Origin: an uncultured cyanobacterium
GTDB lineage: Bacteria; Cyanobacteriota; Cyanobacteriia; Cyanobacteriales; CAWUOF01
Reading direction: 5' to 3'
NCBI GenBank assembly: GCA_963744145.1
Contig: CAVUSO010000001.1
Coordinates: 4,704,001 to 4,768,000, forward strand
Length of the DNA: 64,000 nucleotides
In this document: positions 1 to 8,123 of the stretch, piece after piece
Numbering within the stretch: position 1 is the first letter of the stretch
Layout of the letters: the number at the start of each line of letters is the position of its first letter
Translations under genes and position numbers: made by a program
Notes under the pieces: generated by a model
Told to the model about the DNA's origin: nothing
The model's input: the letters and a program-made list of their open reading frames with translations, nothing else
Database searches by the model: none

Positions 1-1737
1 TGGTGGCGACAAATTGATGACTCCAACTTGATAAAAAAGCTATCATCCAAATTAATAAAAACCGAGTTACGGGCTATTCGTAATGATTTAAACACTAGCG
101 ATGACAGTTTAGAAATAAAACTCGCTAATTTATTCAATCAATTGGCAGAACTGGGCGAAAACCCGTTTCTCTTGATTCTTGATGATTTTGAATGGAATCT
201 CGAACCCCGTCAAGGTCGATTTATTCTCAAGCCTGAAGTTGCGACAGTTTTGTCAGCATTAGTCTGGGCAATCCAAGAGACGGGAACTGGGCATCGGATT
301 TTGATTACCTGTCGCTATGAGTTTAATTCTGAGTTATTGGAATTTTTCTTCTCACAAGGTCTAGAATCTTTTAAAAAAGCTGAATTAACTAAAAAGCTGA
401 ATCGCCTAGAACATTTTAGTTCTGGTAAGCTCTCTGAATATCTACGCGATCGGGCGCTAAGTTTAGCCGATGGCAATCCTCGTTTACTGGAATATCTCAA
501 TGATGAAGTTTTAGGTAAACCAGATGCAGCAGCTAAATTAATCGAGCTAGAACAAAGTCCTGAACTGTGGAAAGACAAAATTATTTGGGAGGAACTGTAT
601 AAGGTTATTGATGAGCCATTACAACGGGTTATTAGCCATTGCCTAATCTACCAAATTCCTGTACCGATGATAGCTTTAGAAGGAGTTTGTGGCTCTCCCG
701 TAATAGCGTTGGAAAATCCCGTTTTTCGGCAGGGGAGAGCACGGAGCAGGGTAGAAGCTTATCACATAAGCTTATGGAACTTAAATAATTTTTACTTATC
801 ACCGCAAGTACGGGACAACCGAGTTTGTGACGCTCTTCCTAATTACCAACAACAGTTACAACGGGGTCAAAAACTGGGGCTTATTGAAATTAGTCCTGAA
901 ATTCAAGAAGAAAATCAAGTCTATTATGTCTCTCGAATTTTACCTCATATAATTCCCAATATTCGACTTTCTGAAGCACCAGAAGTTTATTCGTTGTACA
1001 AGAATGCTCATGAAATATTACATGAGTTATGGGGAAAAATTTACAATGAAAGTAAAGAAAAGTGGCAGGAGATTTTTCGGTTATTGTTTGCGGATAAAGA
1101 AAATCCAGAGCGATTCAGACAGGGATTCTTTAAAATGTTGGCAGTTCAATGCCATTTAGAAGCAGATGAAGCCTTAGAATCAGAAATGAGGAAACTAAAA
1201 GATGAGTTGTCAACGGAGAATTTTTGCGGTCAACTAGAGAACTATTTAAGTCAAAAAGAATGGAGAAAAGCTGATGAGGAAACTGCTTGGATCTTTTATC
1301 AAATGATGGTGCAGAAAGGCTACAAAAATTGGGATGAGTTATGTAAAAACTTTCCCAATGAAATCCTCAACCAGATTGACCAGCTTTGGGTTGATAACAG
1401 TAAAGGACGCTTTGGATTCAGTATTCAAAAACAAATTTGGGAAAGTGTTAATTCAGAAACACGTAAATCGGAAAAATTTGGAAACCTAATAGGTTGGAAT
1501 AAAATAGTAACAGAAAAATGCAATTGGATGTACTACAACACTTTGCTATTCTCGACTGAAGCTGCCACTGGAAGCCTTCCAGCCCTTTGTTATATGAAGG
1601 GAGAATTCATCAAGACAAATGGTGGAGTTTGGGTTGGTGGTTGGATGTTTTATTGTGTAGTTGGGTTTGGGTGGTTATGTGAGTGTGGGTGGGTTGGATT
1701 TCTTCTCTCACGCAAAGATATAAGTTATAAAATATAG
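1..1737 (+). CDS. NTPase-GUN4 domain protein, 5' part outside the window (paralog of 3563..6427, so probably also CHAT-fused)
   Basis: Frame is open from the window start. Walker B LILDDFE, GUN4-like motifs WRKADEET, IDQLWVDNSKGRFGFSIQKQIW and GSLP. Aligns with the 3' part of 3563..6427 and carries a 46-codon in-frame MITE insertion. Confidence 0.85.
   Translation, partial: WWRQIDDSNLIKKLSSKLIKTELRAIRNDLNTSDDSLEIKLANLFNQLAELGENPFLLILDDFEWNLEPRQGRFILKPEVATVLSALVWAIQETGTGHRILITCRYEFNSELLEFFFSQGLESFKKAELTKKLNRLEHFSSGKLSEYLRDRALSLADGNPRLLEYLNDEVLGKPDAAAKLIELEQSPELWKDKIIWEELYKVIDEPLQRVISHCLIYQIPVPMIALEGVCGSPVIALENPVFRQGRARSRVEAYHISLWNLNNFYLSPQVRDNRVCDALPNYQQQLQRGQKLGLIEISPEIQEENQVYYVSRILPHIIPNIRLSEAPEVYSLYKNAHEILHELWGKIYNESKEKWQEIFRLLFADKENPERFRQGFFKMLAVQCHLEADEALESEMRKLKDELSTENFCGQLENYLSQKEWRKADEETAWIFYQMMVQKGYKNWDELCKNFPNEILNQIDQLWVDNSKGRFGFSIQKQIWESVNSETRKSEKFGNLIGWNKIVTEKCNWMYYNTLLFSTEAATGSLPALCYMKGEFIKTNGGVWVGGWMFYCVVGFGWLCECGWVGFLLSRKDISYKI
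691..820. mobile_element. 130-bp MITE with ISL3-like ends, inserted in frame
   Basis: Imperfect TIRs GGCTCTCCCGTA / TACGGGACAACC. 8-bp direct repeat GAGTTTGT at 683-690 and 821-828. Absent from the paralog, which reads VVCAALPNY. Confidence 0.85.
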
Positions 1738-1790
1738 GCTTTTCAGGTATTTTGTCAAGCTAATTTTTTAGTTATTTTTTTACGAAAACA
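1701..1790 (+). other. Conserved GUN4-gene 3' element, copy 1 (TCTTCTCTCRCGCAAAG, stops in three frames, conserved downstream tract)
   Basis: Matches 6408-6494 (TCTTCTCTCRCGCAAAG ... TTTCAGG ... TTTGTCAAGC ... TTTTTACGAAAACA) although the upstream G/T tracts are unrelated. Confidence 0.8.
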
Positions 1791-1821
1791 TAAATAAGTA
1801 GGCGACTGAACAGCCACCTGG

Positions 1822-1896
1822 CATAGCAATTAGCCATCACAAATTTTTCAGCCACCTGGAGAATTTCTGAATTAGTCGATTTCCGTTCGTCCCAAG
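1822..1896 (-). pseudogene. Remnant of the 3' end of a RAYT/Y1-type tyrosine transposase gene
   Basis: High nucleotide similarity to 6659-6733 (CATAGCAATTAGCCATCACAAA..TTTTCAGC.ACCTGG.GAATTTCTGAATTAGTCG). Confidence 0.75.
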
Positions 1897-2079
1897 ATAT
1901 TAGTAACAAGTTAAGGTGATGGGTAAATTAGTTGCGATCGCACAATAGTATTAAATTTAATTCCTAACTGACAAATAGAAAGCGCGATCGCATTTTGTGG
2001 GAGAGCTGAGGTGCGATCGCGACTCAAAAAAATATTAATCAGGTATTTATTCTGTTAAAATTTTGAGATTGTTTTGAAT

Positions 2080-2502
2080 TTATAACTGAGTAGGAATAAT
2101 TAAATCTATAATCTGATTTTTATTCTGACGATAAACTAGAAAATCACGATCTAATGTTAATACACAACTGCCAGCAATTAACTCGGTCATTCTCACTAAA
2201 CAAGCATCGGCTAAAGACATTGGTACATTCTGATAACGTTGCAGCAGTTGTCTAATCGTTTCGCTGTCATCATTCAGTTGAAAAGGAATTTGAATAATTT
2301 TTCTACTGATTAAATTTATCACTGCGTCCTGACCTTTATAGACATCTTGCAACAGAAAACAAGTTTCTGTTATTACCCCTTCGCAAGTCAATAAATGTGG
2401 TTCAATTATTTTCCATTGTTCAATTGCCCAGGAATGTAGATTTTCTTTTTTATTAATAAATGCAACTAATACTCCTGTATCTAGTAACACTTTTTTTCTC
2501 AT
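2080..2502 (-). CDS. vapC: VapC/PIN-domain toxin
   Basis: N-terminal VLLDTGVLVA plus MSLADACLV and LTLDRDF PIN motifs. Overlaps the upstream small gene by 4 nt. Confidence 0.9.
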   Translation of the reverse strand: MRKKVLLDTGVLVAFINKKENLHSWAIEQWKIIEPHLLTCEGVITETCFLLQDVYKGQDAVINLISRKIIQIPFQLNDDSETIRQLLQRYQNVPMSLADACLVRMTELIAGSCVLTLDRDFLVYRQNKNQIIDLIIPTQL

Positions 2503-2753
2503 TTTTTACCCATTCCTTTTAGATATTCTTTATTCGTCCCTAAATCACCAGGGCCAAAATCAACAGATCCAGCAAATTCTTGGGCTGCTTCATAAGCAGA
2601 GATGGGTTGTTTTTCCTTAACTTGCTGTTTCTCCTGCTTTTGGGTTTTATATCGCAAAAACTCAATAAATTCCAAAACAGTATCCTGCTGTTCTATTGTT
2701 AGCATTTCAAGATAATCTAAAATTACATCTTTTTTATTGATCCCCATACTCAT
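2499..2753 (-). CDS. Putative antitoxin (DUF2281-like) of the VapBC pair
   Basis: 84 aa with VLEFIEFLRYK and C-terminal GPGDLGTNKEYLKG, directly upstream of the PIN gene. Confidence 0.75.
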   Translation of the reverse strand: MSMGINKKDVILDYLEMLTIEQQDTVLEFIEFLRYKTQKQEKQQVKEKQPISAYEAAQEFAGSVDFGPGDLGTNKEYLKGMGKK

Positions 2754-2770
2754 AGTTATATTCTCCTAAA

Positions 2771-3094
2771 TTAAATTAAATCGGGATCGATTCCTTGCGA
2801 TCGCAAATAAGCAGCCAATCGTTCTTTCTGTTGTTGTTCTCGATCAGCTCGTACCGTTTCAGCATCAGTCCGTTCGGTCGGATCAGTTTCACGCCAGTAT
2901 ATCCCACTATCTTGTCCGATCGCATATTGACCATCTGGATGAAGATTTTGGAGTGTAGTTGACCGGGAGTCAGTCAGCAAGATACATTGGGCATGTTCTT
3001 GAAAATTTTTCACGAAGGTGCCGTCAGATTCAGGTAATTGAGTATGATTGGGAAAAGGAGGGGGTAAGATGGTGGGGTCAAGACTTTGGACCAT
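2771..3094 (-). pseudogene. Uma2-family endonuclease with a large internal deletion
   Basis: The N-terminus (PNHTQLPESDGTFVKNFQEH...GQDSGIYWR) joins directly to the C-terminal coiled tail (ERLAAYLRSQGIDPD). The nuclease core present in 7356..8123 is missing. Confidence 0.8.
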
Positions 3095-3232
3095 AGTTCT
3101 GAGCGATCCACAACAGGAATGACGAGATGCTTGATTTAAGTATAGCAATTTGAGATTGAGCAGTTTGTTCAGGTTTAATACTTACTACTAAAAAATTAAT
3201 CCAAACAGCGAATATATAGAGGAGATCCACCA

Positions 3233-3553
3233 GTGAAAATTGAAATTGATGGTCAAGATGCGGTTAGCGCTGCTGAGGAATTGCTGAGAATTGAAGGGCT
3301 TGAAGGTAGTTGTAAAATAGTTGATAAAGTGGAGCGAGAAGGAATATTATTAGCTACGATCGCTACAATCGTAGGGATTACCAGTGGTGCTGTGACCATT
3401 GCTAAAGAAATATATGAGTGGTATCAGAAATACCAGAAATCTCAAGGGGCAAAGGCAAAAATTGAGAAAGTGCTAATTATTGGGTCTAATAATCGTCGTT
3501 TGTTGCTCAAGGATGCGACGGTAGAGCAGATTCAGAAGATTCTAGAAGATTAG
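3233..3553 (+). CDS. Small protein with one Gly/Ala-rich hydrophobic helix upstream of a CHAT protease (EACC1-like partner)
   Basis: SD AGGAG before a GTG start. Segment ILLATIATIVGITSGAVTIA preceded by VEREG. Lies 9 nt before the CHAT gene. The EACC1 resemblance is inferred. Confidence 0.6.
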   Translation: MKIEIDGQDAVSAAEELLRIEGLEGSCKIVDKVEREGILLATIATIVGITSGAVTIAKEIYEWYQKYQKSQGAKAKIEKVLIIGSNNRRLLLKDATVEQIQKILED

Positions 3554-3562
3554 GCAGGAACC

Positions 3563-6427
3563 ATGAAAATCCTCCATATTAGTTTAACTGAACAGGGTAA
3601 GGATTATGCTAGTTTGCGTTACTTTTGGAATCATCCTGCTGATTACAAAGAACACAGATTGTCTCTGGCTGAAATTAAAGATTTAGGCAATCAAGCAGAG
3701 ACTGATTACTATACTCGTATTCCTGTGGATTATGCGATTACTGGACAAGCACTCTACAACTGGTTAGATCAGAGCGATCGCGTGTTAGCCAATGCCTTAA
3801 ATCAGCCCCGTCAGGAAGGATTAGTAATTGCGATCGCGACGGATAAAGGAATGGCAAAGTTGCCTTGGGAATTATTGCATGATGGGAAGTGTTTCTTAGT
3901 AGAGAAAAGACCTGCTATTATTCCGGTGCGGTGGGTGCCTAATGGTCAACCGACGATCACGATCGCTAATTCTCCGCAAAATCGACATCTTAATCTGTTA
4001 TTTATGGCCACTTCTCCTTTAGGAGTTGAACCTGAATTAGATTATGAAGCAGAGGAAGGGAAAATTTTAAAGGCGACCCAGCGTACTCCAGTGAATTTGA
4101 GAGTAGAAGAAAGTGGCTCTTTAAGTGAATTGAGTTATCTGGTGCGGAAACAGGAAAAAGACCCAAACCATCCTGATGTTAGCTATTTTGATGTTTTTCA
4201 TTTAACAGGTCATGCAACTTATCAGGAGGGAAAACCCTGCTTTTTGACTGAAGACGAATATGGCAACCGAGTTGATAGTATTACCACAGAAATACGCGAT
4301 GCGCTGACATCTCCCTTACCGCCTTTAATTTTCCTCTCTGGTTGTCGAACTGGTTATTATTCTGAGGAAACAGTTCCCTCAATGGCAGAAGAATTATTAA
4401 AGATGGGAGGAACAGCAATTTTAGGATGGGGGGAAAGAGTCCGTGATACTGATGCAACAGCAGCTGCGTGTAAATTATATTGGCATTTGTCTCAGGGGGA
4501 AGCGGTTACAGATGCTCTATTTTCTACCTATCAAGCCTTGATTCGACAACAAGCACACGATTGGCATAAATTACGGTTATATGTGGCAAATACCTTACCC
4601 CAGATGTTAGTAACTCCTGTAAACACAAGAGGACGAACACAATTGCCTAAACCGAAATTTAGGGATAGTGATCAGCAGTTAAAAGTGGCAAGGGGTGAAG
4701 ATTTTGTTGGTCGTCGCCGTCAGCTCCAGAACTGTTTGCGAATACTAAAGATAGATAATGACAAAGTAGGAGTATTAATTCATGGCATGGGGGGATTGGG
4801 AAAAAGTAGCATTGCCATTCGACTGTCGGATCGGCTATATGAACATGAAAAAGTTCTGTGGCGACAACAAATTGATGCCTCAAGCTTGATAAAAGAGCTA
4901 TCTGATAAATTAATTAAACCAACGTTACGCGATATTCGTGATGATTTAAACAGCAATGACAGATTATATTTTAAGATAGCTAATCTATTCAATCAATTAG
5001 CAGAACTGGGTGAGAAACCGTTTCTCTTGATTCTTGATGAATTTGAATTGAATCTAGAACCCCGTCAAGATCGATACATTCTCAAACCTGAAGTTGCTAC
5101 AGTTTTAGAAGCATTAGTTAGGGCAATCCAAGATACGGGAACTCAAAATCGAATTATTATTACCTGTCGCTATAAGTTTGATTTTAATTTATTGAATTCT
5201 TTTTTCTCTCAAGGTCTAGAAGCTTTTCAAAAAGCTGAATTAACTAAAAAACTGAACCGCTTAGAACATTTTAGTTCTGATCAGCTCTCTCAAGAGCTAC
5301 GCGATCAATCGCTAAGTTTAGCCGATGGCAATCCTCGTTTACTGGAATATCTCAATGATGAAGTTTTAGGTAAACCAGATGCAGCAGCTAAATTAACGGA
5401 ACTAGAACAAAGTCCTGAACAGTGGAAAAACAAAATTATTTGGCCAGACTTGTATAAGCTTATTGATGAGCCTTTACAACAGGTTCTTAGTCATTGCTTA
5501 ATCTATGAAATTCCTGTACCAATGGAAGCTTTAGAAGTAGTTTGTGCTGCTCTTCCTAATTACCAACAGCAATTACATCGAGGGCGTGAACTGGGATTCA
5601 TTGAAATCAGTCCTGACGTTCAAGCAGAAAATCAAGTCTTTCGTTTCTCTCGAATTTTACCTCATATTATTCCTAATATCCGACTTCCTGAAGCACCTGA
5701 AGTTTATTCTTTGTACAAGAAAGCTTATGAAAAGTTACATCAGTTGTGGGGAAACAAACAAAATGAAAGTCCGGAAAAGTGGCAGGAAATTTTTCGGTTA
5801 TTGTTTGCCGATCAAGAAAATCCAGAACGATTCAGACAGGGATTCTATGAGATGTTGGCAGTTCAATATAATTCAGAAGCAGATCAAGCCTTAGAATCAG
5901 ACCTGAGACAACTGAAAAATGAATTATCAACAGATAATCTTTGCCGTCAATTAGAGGATTATTTAAGGCAACAAGAATGGAGAAAAGCTGACGAGGAAAC
6001 TGCCTGGATTTTTTATCAAGTGATGGTGCAGCAAGACTATGAAGATTGGTCCGAGCTATGCAGAAACTTTCCCTGCGAAACCCTCAAGCAGATAGATCAG
6101 CTTTGGGTTGATAACAGTCAAGGACGTTTTGGATTCAGCATTCAAAAGCAAATCTGGGAAAGTGTGGGCGGACATCCTGATGCAAAATATGAAATATATG
6201 AAAAATTTTGTGATAAAGTAGAATGGAGAAAAGAGGGCGAATGGTTGCTTTATAGTAACCTTACTTTTAATAATAACACTACTCCAGAGGGCTACCTCCC
6301 AGTCCTACCGCTCGCTCGCTTTCGCGAGTTTGGGGGTTGGTTGGGATTTATGGGGATGGGATACAAGGGGGATTGGAGATTTGTGAGGGTTGTTGTTGGG
6401 GTGGGTCTCTTCTCTCGCGCAAAGTAA
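3563..6427 (+). CDS. CHAT protease - STAND/AAA NTPase - GUN4 domain protein
   Basis: CHAT LPWELLHD with His in HLTGHA and Cys in LSGCRT. Walker A GMGGLGKS, Walker B LILDEFE. C-terminal GUN4-like motifs (WRKADEET, GRFGFSIQKQIW, GYLP). Confidence 0.9.
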   Translation: MKILHISLTEQGKDYASLRYFWNHPADYKEHRLSLAEIKDLGNQAETDYYTRIPVDYAITGQALYNWLDQSDRVLANALNQPRQEGLVIAIATDKGMAKLPWELLHDGKCFLVEKRPAIIPVRWVPNGQPTITIANSPQNRHLNLLFMATSPLGVEPELDYEAEEGKILKATQRTPVNLRVEESGSLSELSYLVRKQEKDPNHPDVSYFDVFHLTGHATYQEGKPCFLTEDEYGNRVDSITTEIRDALTSPLPPLIFLSGCRTGYYSEETVPSMAEELLKMGGTAILGWGERVRDTDATAAACKLYWHLSQGEAVTDALFSTYQALIRQQAHDWHKLRLYVANTLPQMLVTPVNTRGRTQLPKPKFRDSDQQLKVARGEDFVGRRRQLQNCLRILKIDNDKVGVLIHGMGGLGKSSIAIRLSDRLYEHEKVLWRQQIDASSLIKELSDKLIKPTLRDIRDDLNSNDRLYFKIANLFNQLAELGEKPFLLILDEFELNLEPRQDRYILKPEVATVLEALVRAIQDTGTQNRIIITCRYKFDFNLLNSFFSQGLEAFQKAELTKKLNRLEHFSSDQLSQELRDQSLSLADGNPRLLEYLNDEVLGKPDAAAKLTELEQSPEQWKNKIIWPDLYKLIDEPLQQVLSHCLIYEIPVPMEALEVVCAALPNYQQQLHRGRELGFIEISPDVQAENQVFRFSRILPHIIPNIRLPEAPEVYSLYKKAYEKLHQLWGNKQNESPEKWQEIFRLLFADQENPERFRQGFYEMLAVQYNSEADQALESDLRQLKNELSTDNLCRQLEDYLRQQEWRKADEETAWIFYQVMVQQDYEDWSELCRNFPCETLKQIDQLWVDNSQGRFGFSIQKQIWESVGGHPDAKYEIYEKFCDKVEWRKEGEWLLYSNLTFNNNTTPEGYLPVLPLARFREFGGWLGFMGMGYKGDWRFVRVVVGVGLFSRAK

Positions 6428-6494
6428 TCTGTAAGATATAACAATTTCAGGCCATTTGTCAAGCTTAATTTTGGTACTAATTTTTACGAAAACA
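6408..6494 (+). other. Conserved GUN4-gene 3' element, copy 2
   Basis: Homologous to 1701-1790. Stop codons occur in all three frames within 6425-6441. Confidence 0.8.
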
Positions 6495-6620
6495 TCGGCT
6501 TTCCGCCAATTCGATACCTGGCACTGTTCCGTCTGTCCGTTTTGGCTGTCTGTCTGTTGTTGGAATATATATTTTAGACAGAATAAAGACAGAATGGCCA
6601 GGTGACCAGAACAACACAAA

Positions 6621-6953
6621 CTAAGAATCATTGAAAAACTGTGCAGCGACCTTGGGGTCATAGCAATTAGCCATCACAAACTTTTCAGCTACCTGGCGAA
6701 TTTCTGAATTAGTCGGTTCCCATTCATCCCAAGGCAATTTCATCTGTCCAGGAATACGTCTTTTCGTTTCCTTTGCACTCAAAACCTTGGGCAGTAATTT
6801 ACTTCCCCAGTGACAACGGTTTTCCGGTTTGGGTTGAGGTTTATATTTCTTACAGAACTTGCGATATTTCTCGGCACATTCATCCAAACTTTTCCCCAGA
6901 GCCAAAAAAGCAGGATGCCACTGAGTTAGTCCATCATCGCTCAATCGGTCATA
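6621..6953 (-). pseudogene. C-terminal part of a cyanobacterial RAYT/IS200-like (Y1) tyrosine transposase, 5' truncated by a MITE
   Basis: YDRLSDDGLTQWHPAFLALG...CAEKYRKFCKKYKP...VAEKFVMANCYDP resembles, from recollection, the C-terminus of cyanobacterial Y1_Tnp proteins. The frame runs into the MITE end at 6954. The HUH core is absent. Confidence 0.65.
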
Positions 6954-7307
6954 TACAGCAGATTCGGTCGTTGATGAAGTACAGTAAGATTTGGCATGAA
7001 TGGCGATCGGTTAAAGTCGCTTGTGAGTGATCTGTGTTGGTTGGGCAGGTTTATGATAGTTATCTGTTTGCAGCAGAATTGATTGGTGAACCTGCCCCTA
7101 CAAATCCCGGTTGATTGTGATCATAAATTCATTCACCTGCCCCTACAAATCCTGTTAATCTTGTAATCCTCTAATCCTGATCGATTTTTTGGTGAATCTC
7201 TGTAGGGATGGGTCTACTGAAATTTTTGCTATTTACCCACTAATCATCACGCACCCACCCCCACCCACAGATCAATCTGCTCAATGTATCTTCATAGTCA
7301 ATTGGTA
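6954..7307. mobile_element. Chimeric MITE carrying REP-like repeats
   Basis: Left end TACAGCAGATTC...TGATGAAGTACA resembles the ends of 16246-16572. Right end TGTATCTTCAT..AATTGGTA resembles the end of 44635-44931. Internal GGTGAACCTGCCCCTAC repeats. Confidence 0.75.
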
Positions 7308-7355: not shown

Positions 7356-8123
7356 ATGACTTCTGTGATCAAAACGACATCAAGGTTAAGACCAGATTTA
7401 CCCGACCATACTGAATTACCTGACTCCGACGATAACTTCGTGAAAAATTTTCAGGAACATCCTCAAAGTATTCTCCTCACCGATTCGATTCAACCAGTAT
7501 TAGACCGTTTACATCCAGATGGACAATATTGTATCGGACAGGACAGTGGTATTTATTGGCGATTAACTGAACCACCTCTAGATGGAGCTGAAGCACCGGA
7601 TTGGTTTTATGTCCCCGATGTCCCCCGGACACTGAATGGACAACTACGACGATCTTATGTGATCTGGCAAGAATTAACTCCCCCAGCGATCGCGATCGAA
7701 TTTGTCTCCGGAAATGGGAAAGAAGAAAGAGATCCTACTCCCTTAAAGGGAAAATTTTGGGTCTATGAACAAGGAATTAAAATCCCCTATTATGCGATCT
7801 ATGAAGTCCAGAAAGCGAGGGTGGAAGTCTATCAACTCCAAGACGATCGCTATGTCAAATTAAGTCCAAATTTCCAGGGACGTTATCCGATTCACTTGAT
7901 GGGAGTAGAATTAGGAATCTGGTCCGGAAGATATCAAACCATGCAACTACCCTGGTTAAGATGGTGGGATGAGCAAGGAAACTTGTTATTAACGGGAAGT
8001 GAAAGAGCCGAAATCGAGCAACGGGAAAAACAACTAGCCCAACAACAACTTGAACAGGAACGACAACGAGTTGAACGTTTAGCGGCTCAATTACGCAGTT
8101 TAGGGATTGAACCGGAATTATAG
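7356..8123 (+). CDS. Uma2-family (PD-(D/E)XK) endonuclease
   Basis: EAPDWFYVP, AIEFVSGNG, KFWVYEQ and LRWWD motifs with a coiled-coil tail. Confidence 0.9.
   Translation: MTSVIKTTSRLRPDLPDHTELPDSDDNFVKNFQEHPQSILLTDSIQPVLDRLHPDGQYCIGQDSGIYWRLTEPPLDGAEAPDWFYVPDVPRTLNGQLRRSYVIWQELTPPAIAIEFVSGNGKEERDPTPLKGKFWVYEQGIKIPYYAIYEVQKARVEVYQLQDDRYVKLSPNFQGRYPIHLMGVELGIWSGRYQTMQLPWLRWWDEQGNLLLTGSERAEIEQREKQLAQQQLEQERQRVERLAAQLRSLGIEPEL

Follow-up and report, generated by a model that had tools for sequence, protein, structure and literature searches.

What makes genes that are otherwise alike end in unrelated sequence? This question is raised by a 64,000-nucleotide (nt) stretch of DNA from an uncultured cyanobacterium (positions 4,704,001 to 4,768,000 of contig CAVUSO010000001.1, assembly GCA_963744145.1), which we call the window and number from its first base. 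Near its start, two genes with a GUN4-like domain end in dissimilar G/T-rich tails, each followed by a short end cassette and by a piece of a convergent gene for a Y1/HUH (RAYT-type) transposase. This feature is real, widespread and selected. Sequence comparison suggests that the enzyme probably nicks at the cassette edge and that biased, mostly untemplated synthesis then rewrites a loop of the GUN4 pocket. In a broader form that also admits capture of DNA pieces, a diversifier driven by the enzyme is quite likely.

Two modules in the window end in unrelated tails

The initial annotation described one module present twice, and both copies were confirmed at their positions. Gene 2 (3563 to 6427, forward strand) encodes 954 amino acids (aa) with a CHAT protease domain, a STAND-type NTPase and a GUN4-like domain (Pfam E values: CHAT, 5.8e-18; AAA_16, 3.8e-9; GUN4, 7e-30). 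Gene 1 is represented by its 3' part, an NTPase region and a GUN4-like domain (1 to 1737, forward strand; Pfam GUN4, 1.8e-25). It starts before the window, its reading frame is open from base 1, and 838 open codons lie 5' of the GUN4 match. In gene 2, the GYLP motif is followed by variable region 2 (6302 to 6405, forward strand), which has 104 nt and 76% G+T (G46 T33 A13 C12). Variable region 1 is G/T-rich and follows GSLP at 1582 to 1698 (forward strand). Depending on whether base 1699 is included, tail 1 has 117 or 118 nt and 77% G+T (G46 T45 A21 C6), and its part from 1621 to 1698 is free of C (G38 T33 A7 C0).

Behind tail 2, on the forward strand, lie a three-frame end cassette (TCTCTTCTCTCGCGCAAAG..., with TAA in every frame; 6406 to 6444, from cassette alignment), a spacer whose length is conserved, whose sequence is weakly so and which has no consensus fold (6445 to 6512, from cassette comparison), and a GATACCTGGCAC box (6513 to 6524, from locus comparison) that is common to the cyanobactin and procA-type modules described below. 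The 5' edge of cassette 2 (6406) is the predicted nick site, and the box is the predicted enzyme-binding site. Cassette 2 has a 5-nt deletion, and its T-to-box distance is 108 nt, versus the usual 112 to 113 nt. Comparison of equivalents showed a second length-variable stretch with short local repeats from the box to the transposase stop (6525 to 6620, forward strand). Right after the box, this stretch and its equivalents carry stuttered short repeats, and several copies end in an inverted box core (CCAGGT).

The transposase piece of module 2 is a C-terminal half on the reverse strand (6621 to 6968), and the 5' part of the gene is replaced from about 6954 by a genome-wide short repeat. Assignment of 6621 to 6953 to the Y1/HUH family stands on homology to residues 141 to 253 of an intact relative; the piece itself has no HuH motif, catalytic Tyr or Pfam match. 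In module 1, the degenerate cassette and fixed spacer (1699 to 1821, forward strand) share 70 of 86 aligned bases with cassette 2. The box of this copy is degenerate, with an 11-nt transposase copy in its place (1811 to 1821 = 1849 to 1859), and the final 26 or so codons of the RAYT-type gene remain at 1823 to 1900 on the reverse strand (tblastn, 77% identity, E = 3.9e-7). Both local transposase copies are broken, as annotated: the pieces at 1823 to 1900 and 6624 to 6968 lack the catalytic half. The annotated unalignable segments of 119 and 106 nt were also borne out, since the rejoining core TCTTCTCTCRCGCAAAG begins at 1701 and 6408. The claim that the paralogs are alike until GxLP held in part. 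Their tails cannot be aligned, but divergence already precedes the motif, with 79 of 141 nt identical from 1441 to 1581 versus 199 of 240 further 5'. Because the paralogs differ before GxLP, the window pair is a weak test by itself, and other pairs carry the case.

Close copies carry unrelated tails

The genome (7.7 Mb, 96% complete) contains 50 GUN4 tblastn matches. Motif, variable region and cassette could be parsed for 32 GUN4 ends, with tail G+T of 0.64 to 1.00; two of these tails are pure G/T, over 30 and 46 nt. Window copy 1 is too degenerate for the parser and lies outside the 32. Thus, the module that the initial annotation had based on two copies is real, and its basis in this genome alone is far wider than two. 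In the chromosome as a whole, 60-nt windows with at least 75% G+T make up only 0.15%. A scan for such G/T windows was not discriminating as a finder of modules (15 of 174 windows at GUN4, mostly Pro/Thr repeats). All 19 genome matches to cassette family 1 (at most 4 mismatches) and 8 of 9 matches to family 2 lie behind GUN4. The canonical GUN4 gene at C1:1114753 keeps a normal tail and has no cassette. Cassette or box pieces without GUN4 directly 5' occur at G000:C1:2896331, 2540584 and 5579212, all on the reverse strand, and are probably orphaned ends.

We extended the comparison to 151 genomes drawn evenly from the class, in which 87 of 92 cassettes sit behind GUN4, and to a non-redundant set of 155 tails, taken from this genome, from other genomes in GTDB and from metagenome contigs. 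As predicted, close copies differ in the length and the sequence of their tails. In 32 of 32 pairs with upstream flanks at least 85% alike (flank identity 85 to 98%; many pairs share members), the variable regions resemble each other at about the level of shuffles, with a largest excess of 0.12, even at 97 to 98% flank identity. In one open reading frame (ORF) with four tandem GUN4 repeats and in the neighboring gene, the flanks are near-identical and the inserts are unrelated and in-frame. On a Cylindrospermopsis plasmid, two modules carry tails of different length (34 and 66 nt) between flanks that are almost the same. Intact modules are present on plasmids of cultured Nostoc; one plasmid of Nostoc flagelliforme (NZ_CP024793.1, enzyme gene at 380294-381064) has the layout of the window with the enzyme gene intact.

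Two kinds of side observation concern unusual tails. Very long ones (276 nt and more; G000:C1:7024125 and L190) are open and read as membrane-like Phe/Leu/Trp/Ile peptides. At four loci (L166, L095, L182 and L006), one variable region next to an intact enzyme gene is assembled as a run of N, and several contigs end at or inside a variable region; mixed tails in the reads, or just repeats, may account for this.

Tails are G/T-biased, translated and without a template

Tail length ranges from 20 to 276 nt, with a median of 58 nt, and the composition is G 0.41, T 0.33, A 0.16 and C 0.11. At least 80% G+T was found in 55 of the 155 tails. The bias is equal at all codon positions, and third positions of Gly and Val codons are 79% G/T in tails versus 43% in the gene body. 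Since it is present at these free third positions, the bias arises at the DNA level and not by amino-acid selection alone. Tail trinucleotides follow a first-order chain; the tails are near first-order random, with no periodic unit.

Frames, stops and junctions were counted in 140 family-1 tails. The cassette had been annotated as frame-independent, and all three of its frames are indeed read (44, 40 and 56 tails), giving ends of the LLSRKDL, SSLAQRLVxCxI or LFSRAKTCNL type. Only 5 tails contain a stop, versus 80 expected. Because stops are purged and all frames are used, the tails are translated and selected. At the junction, the invariant part of the cassette starts at the T in TC-TCTT, which fits a nick at that edge. 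Both leading bases are kept in 87 of 140 tails, tails without the leading C have T at background level, and T precedes the constant part in 61 of 77 GUN4 tails. An excess of adenine at the junction (34 of 127 versus 16%; p = 0.002) may reflect A-addition or an ancestral cassette base, and we do not use it as support.

The initial annotation had noted no template repeat in the window, and a search of the genome found none. Of 1,933 tail 17-mers, 9 match elsewhere in the genome (mostly GGT repeats), versus 0.2% for shuffles, so a template elsewhere was rejected. Copying followed by deamination (A to G, C to T) was rejected as well, because 0 of 1,391 purine/pyrimidine 34-mers match. Snap-back copying, found in 1 of 77 and 1 of 155 tails (the latter being the count of inverted flank copies), was also rejected. 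Direct copies of at least 9 nt of the upstream flank are present in 17 of 155 tails (one with a mis-called boundary), versus 3 for a control stretch, and one tail carries successive copies of the cassette start.

These searches bear on a reverse transcriptase (RT) acting in trans, either one of the diversity-generating retroelement (DGR) type or one that stutters like telomerase on a short A/C-rich RNA, as the writer of the tails. We consider this explanation very improbable. The genome has three RT matches, all more than 240 kb from the window: a stand-alone protein of 494 aa (G000:C1:3189607-3191091), a truncated RT that we take from its motifs to be DGR-like (5012059-5012886), and one overlapping a cas1-like gene (5091596-5093697). 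Among five genomes with several modules that were checked, four encode RTs of 354 to 377 aa, and DGRs vary similar cyanobacterial proteins (PMC7517822). However, all 19 cassette matches in this genome lie inside genes, none being a template repeat. In the 6 of 32 tails that were tested, matches that allow A to become any base are no commoner than in shuffles, and neither the range of tail lengths nor the lack of a periodic unit fits. In one genome (G057), the tails at five cassettes are mostly G/T-rich, and the only RT there contains an internal stop. An antisense sigma-70 promoter-like site at 6462 to 6433 in the window was rejected as a general feature, since it is not conserved above shuffles in 64 cassettes.

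The varied stretch lies at the lip of the GUN4 pocket

A model of the gene 2 GUN4 domain superimposes on a solved GUN4 structure with a Z score of 16.2 and a root mean square deviation (rmsd) of 3.1 over 135 residues. In this model, variable region 2 is a loop of low predicted local distance difference test (pLDDT) score, followed by a helix (model residues 157 to 166) that includes cassette-coded residues. Variable region 2 replaces the loop equivalent to residues 209 to 219 of Synechocystis GUN4. In that protein, Leu210, Arg214, Arg217, Val218 and Ala219, all after Pro208, line the porphyrin pocket (PMC1084334). The varied part is therefore the lip of the ligand pocket. In canonical GUN4, a Mg-chelatase cofactor, L210, R214 and R217 after GHLP bind porphyrin (numbering of PMC1084334); in the window, that stretch is the variable region. 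GUN4 is also described as an effector in cyanobacterial vWA-MoxR conflict systems (PMC7159879).

A Y1/HUH enzyme gene converges on the tails

The window stubs match a near-complete enzyme gene at C1:6188628-6189446, which scores over the Pfam cut-off for Y1_Tnp. This gene carries an in-frame insertion of 8 codons (24 nt), and an early TAA cuts it short some 20 codons ahead of its normal end. Therefore, the genome is without a clearly intact enzyme copy at its 96% completeness. Because both window copies are stubs and the near-complete gene is interrupted, the process is probably historical in this genome. The near-complete gene (L001, G000:C1:6188107-6189506) faces an ORF for a 54-aa peptide, presumably of the double-glycine type, and adjoins HlyD/ABC-transporter-like genes.

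Intact relatives have 254 to 270 aa, the motifs NH[IV]HY and YIHANP, and a C-terminal extension that is modelled at low confidence; full-length copies number 1 to 3 per genome. In Foldseek, the enzyme model (pLDDT 67) matched IS608, ISDra2 and 4er8 with E values of 2e-6 to 3e-5, and its comparison with 4er8, the TnpA_REP structure, gave a TMq of 0.42 and an rmsd of 3.7. A search of the Protein Data Bank (PDB) sequences with a profile of the enzyme alignment gave 0 matches. The enzyme scored 62.4 bits against the curated RAYT profile NF047646, under the cut-off of 80, and 21.5 bits against the IS200/IS605 profile NF033573, with a cut-off of 55. The HuH and Y--NP motifs of class 2 TnpA_Y1 proteins are found in the intact relatives and are absent from the window stubs. 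The best candidate class is subclass 2.1, for which PMC6006769 gives about 240 to 250 aa, a helix-turn-helix-like C-terminal extension and no repetitive extragenic palindromes (REPs).

The annotated convergent placement of a Y1 homolog 3' of GUN4 proved to be a strong enrichment. Among 33 GTDB loci, 26 have at least 900 nt of downstream sequence; 22 of these face GUN4, and 4 face short peptide ORFs that presumably resemble double-glycine peptide precursors. In the 151 genomes, 33 of 37 full-length enzyme genes face a GUN4-type tail, always convergently, by a hand tally (31 by tblastn and 2 at contig ends). By another breakdown, 26 have a convergent cassette within 350 nt, 6 more have GUN4 by tblastn, and 1 has GHLP and a cassette at a contig end. 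The other four face cyanobactin precursors, the small peptide ORF of this genome, a contig end and nothing recognizable, respectively. In this genome, 6 of 9 enzyme stub matches are convergent behind GUN4. The cassette is present in 56 of the 151 genomes: 27 of 34 with the enzyme versus 29 of 117 without it, related genomes not being independent in this count.

The full unit reads as cargo 3' end, variable region, TC-starting pyrimidine cassette, fixed-length spacer, GATACCTGGCAC box and convergent enzyme gene. The box lies 110 to 114 nt from the cassette in 64 of 92 cassettes. Often the enzyme gene has decayed to a C-terminal stub, and the cassette and box persist. T-to-box distances of 103 to 104, 112 to 113 and 144 to 145 nt differ by 9 and 32, which match whole helical turns only roughly, and spacer conservation has no helical periodicity (no peak at 10.5). 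Coding capacity on the other strand of the spacer was rejected, because several copies contain stops by eye. No strong inverted repeat was found.

The same enzyme and box stand beside unrelated cargo

In one genome (G100; L193 and L212, G100:C1:1721498-1724100), an intact enzyme gene faces four TIGR04446 cyanobactin precursors, which are identical units of about 505 nt with different cores. Their variable stretches have about 22, 28, 96 and 28 nt; the long one is broken and G/T-rich, with copies of both flanks. The box lies 143 to 144 nt from the constant T, which is conserved in 4 of 4 units. We take the genes behind this enzyme gene to be PatF-, PatA- and PatG-like. TIGR04446 precursors occur in 13 of 401 genomes, and the enzyme is in the loci of 7 of these 13. 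Of 19 parsed precursors, 7 have the box at 144 to 145 nt and 16 have T before the Pro codon; this T, which precedes the constant part, is a free third codon position.

In a small-genome relative, procA-like genes have the same box behind them (11 boxes), and the enzyme profile matches two small-genome relatives at E values of about 1e-89. At L019, L023, L031 and L004, the enzyme faces tandem Nostoc peptide precursors, each of which ends in a box; it also faces a Nif11/NHLP-like ORF in an alphaproteobacterial bin. Our main argument that the enzyme causes the variation is that these three cargo classes, unrelated to each other, have nothing in common but the enzyme, the box and a variable region with sharp limits. 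The initial annotation mentioned neither the box at its fixed distance nor the use of this enzyme clade beside other cargo.

A nick-and-refill model and its alternatives

We suggest the following scheme. The enzyme, acting in cis or in trans and positioned by the box, would make its nick at the edge of the cassette, on the coding strand (N^TCTCTT or C^TCTT). The 5' T of the cassette would be held as a phosphotyrosine, as by TnpA_REP at C^T. The free upstream 3'-OH would be trimmed to a variable depth and then extended with a G/T bias, mostly without a template; now and then it would slip back and copy the G[HY]LP region. Candidates for this extension are a host polymerase of general function and the enzyme itself. 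G and T present the same pattern of Watson-Crick donors and acceptors, and C and A likewise share one, so a single protein pocket could select either pair. The enzyme would finally rejoin the new end to the cassette. Codons made of G and T alone are never stops and give Gly, Val, Leu, Trp, Phe or Cys, and the cassette would supply a short helix and then a stop whichever frame is read. Most products would thus be complete proteins in which a new hydrophobic loop lies across the GUN4 pocket. Carriers would be CHAT-NTPases, kinases and similar conflict or signaling proteins, and selection would keep open, useful tails. A more general proposal is that one HUH clade, with a 12-nt box at a set helical distance and untemplated G/T refill possibly by the enzyme, forms an RT-free junctional diversifier resembling V(D)J joining that serves GUN4 loops, cyanobactin cores and prochlorosin-type cores alike. 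This we hold tentatively, with somewhat less than even confidence.

Several results weigh against refilling by the enzyme. Tail variation between strains or reads, which the initial annotation had predicted, was not seen in the material at hand: the only run holding the window (X1; contigs only, possibly the source sample), listed as spanning tail 1 but not tail 2, has no difference across tail 1, and two metagenome contigs (L038 and L042) share one identical 45-nt tail that is not G/T-rich. Invariant plasmid pairs from Tolypothrix (0 differences in 3,387 nt) and Stanieria (same tail) were rejected as a counter-test; they have no clear cassette or enzyme and therefore do not test diversification. 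Among the 155 tails, 19 have less than 60% G+T, and picocyanobacterial cores are not G/T-rich. A comparison of 34 cassettes gave no consensus structure on either strand, no covariation and no hairpin of the REP or IS200 type. At 38 enzyme loci, no polymerase, RT or nucleotidyltransferase recurs, and only peptide transport genes do; the genome, at its stated completeness, has no match to PolX, AEP primase, Y-family polymerase or Ku. The strand of synthesis could not be read from the duplications. The G+T content of the final 30 nt is 0.75 beside an intact enzyme gene (n = 22) versus 0.73 where the genome has no full-length enzyme gene (n = 44; p = 0.53; genome-level p = 0.054; one N-run row dropped). 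This purity test is blunt, because the enzyme may act in trans and tails may outlive it.

The lack of dependence on an intact enzyme also speaks for a different history, in which the enzyme only spreads the cassette-box unit or once delivered it. Tails would then change through ordinary slippage and repair, in a loop that is rich in G, prone to quadruplexes and, owing to the three-frame cassette, tolerant of insertions and deletions. The persistence of cassettes in 29 of 117 enzyme-free genomes and the enrichment of local direct repeats agree with this. However, copying should leave partial similarity, and pairs at 93 to 98% flank identity are at shuffle level. Nor would slippage yield tails that are near first-order random and not periodic. 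Slippage does not account for tails that end abruptly on the 3' side at a constant distance from a box tied to the enzyme, for a T conserved in two cargo classes that are not related, or for the cyanobactin cores, where there is no three-frame cassette. We regard slippage as unlikely.

Nicking by the enzyme could also be followed by capture, in which single-stranded DNA fragments or single nucleotides are joined by repeated strand transfer without a polymerase. TnpA_REP performs strand transfer between CT sites of low specificity (PMC3333891), a 31-nt duplication (L011) has a blunt junction, some long A-rich tails resemble foreign coding DNA, and no polymerase partner was found. Yet the 17-mers reveal no genomic source, and the pure G/T tracts of 30 to 46 nt would require pieces of 1 to 3 nt. 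This variant appears improbable to us, and refilling by synthesis after the nick remains our preferred reading.

Relation to described systems

The closest described arrangement is in marine picocyanobacteria, where procA faces tnpA_REP. The association was called unique to them and recombination was proposed (Laurenceau et al., bioRxiv 10.1101/2020.03.09.984088). The authors of this preprint withdrew the causal claim, which also counts against an active role of the enzyme. The GUN4 modules resemble this association in several ways: the two genes converge at a conserved spacing, C-terminal stubs of the enzyme gene occur, the 3' end of the cargo coding sequence is hypervariable, and the enzyme clade and the box are the same. 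The main text of the preprint does not describe the box. They differ in cargo, which is a lanthipeptide precursor there and CHAT-NTPase-GUN4 here, and in the intergenic terminator-like hairpin there, as opposed to no consensus fold here. The G/T-biased fill and the three-frame cassette are features of the GUN4 module. A G-quadruplex at the constant/variable border is counted among the traits of the procA association; GUN4 tails are 41% G.

Escherichia coli TnpA_REP cuts C^T with low specificity, forms a 5'-phosphotyrosine and transfers strands (PMC3333891; PMC8266576). Our enzyme shares with TnpA_REP and RAYT proteins the Y1 HUH fold, the NH[IV]HY and YIHANP motifs, low copy number, a C-terminal extension and variable linkers beside CT sites (PMC3333891; PMC8266576; PMC6006769). 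In contrast, no REP hairpin or GTAG guide was found here, the target lies inside coding sequence, and the new DNA is no copy of the element. IS200/IS605 elements have a TnpA of about 150 aa, near-identical copies and subterminal hairpins, unlike the 1 to 3 copies per genome without a 3'-side hairpin seen here.

Cyanobacterial DGRs act on proteins of the kinase, CHAT/caspase and vWA-MoxR types, varying the end that binds ligands, the C-terminal one, and they reach remote targets in trans (PMC7517822; PMC7159879). The kind of protein and the part varied are thus alike. However, no RT stands beside the module and no template repeat was found here, length is not preserved, the changes are neither adenine-specific nor codon-patterned, and the target fold is GUN4 rather than a C-type lectin or Ig domain. 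By these tests, the feature is not a DGR, REPtron or IS200 element, and it shares clade and architecture with the procA association.

The anacyclamide and piricyclamide cyanobactins (TIGR04446; PMC6162287) likewise have constant flanks around unrelated cores, although their cores have to stay in a single frame and lack G/T purity. In the sph (sphaerocyclamide) cluster, a transposase stands between sphE and sphF, a position like that in G100; it is given no role in the available sections of PMC6162287.

In V(D)J junctional N-addition, the cut is made by a domesticated transposase, trimming and template-free filling of the ends follow, and a binding loop varies in length. The enzymes there are the DDE recombinase RAG plus TdT, acting with segment joining; they are unrelated to single-strand HUH chemistry, and there is no segment joining here. 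We found no description of the GUN4 system in the open-access literature. The architecture has been described for procA, and the mechanism, if shown, would have no established counterpart that we found.

Bacteria are known to have only a few means of directing variation to a single region of a gene. If our reading is true, it adds a change of both length and sequence without a template, and the hypervariability of cyanobactin and prochlorosin cores between constant flanks becomes directly testable; the comparison supplies an enzyme, a predicted binding box, a spacing and a predicted nick site. GUN4-like domains would then serve multicellular cyanobacteria as a repertoire of variable receptors, a counterpart of the lectin domains that DGRs vary, and the system could yield a compact tool with which living cells build libraries of peptides or loops.

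Other features of the window and genome

A 106-aa ORF directly 5' of gene 2 (3233 to 3553, forward strand, from the ORF list) had no match in the family search; an ORF of like size stands at the equivalent place in Nostoc plasmid modules, the likeness being one of size and position only. Between and after the two modules (2080 to 3148 and 7356 to 8123) stand what we take to be a PIN-like toxin-antitoxin pair and Uma2-like ORFs, one of them truncated. Elsewhere in this genome, one presumably vWA-MoxR-type neighborhood ends in a GUN4 tail. Relative to gene 2, gene 1 has an in-frame insertion of about 138 nt at about 685 to 825, with a short direct repeat at its borders.

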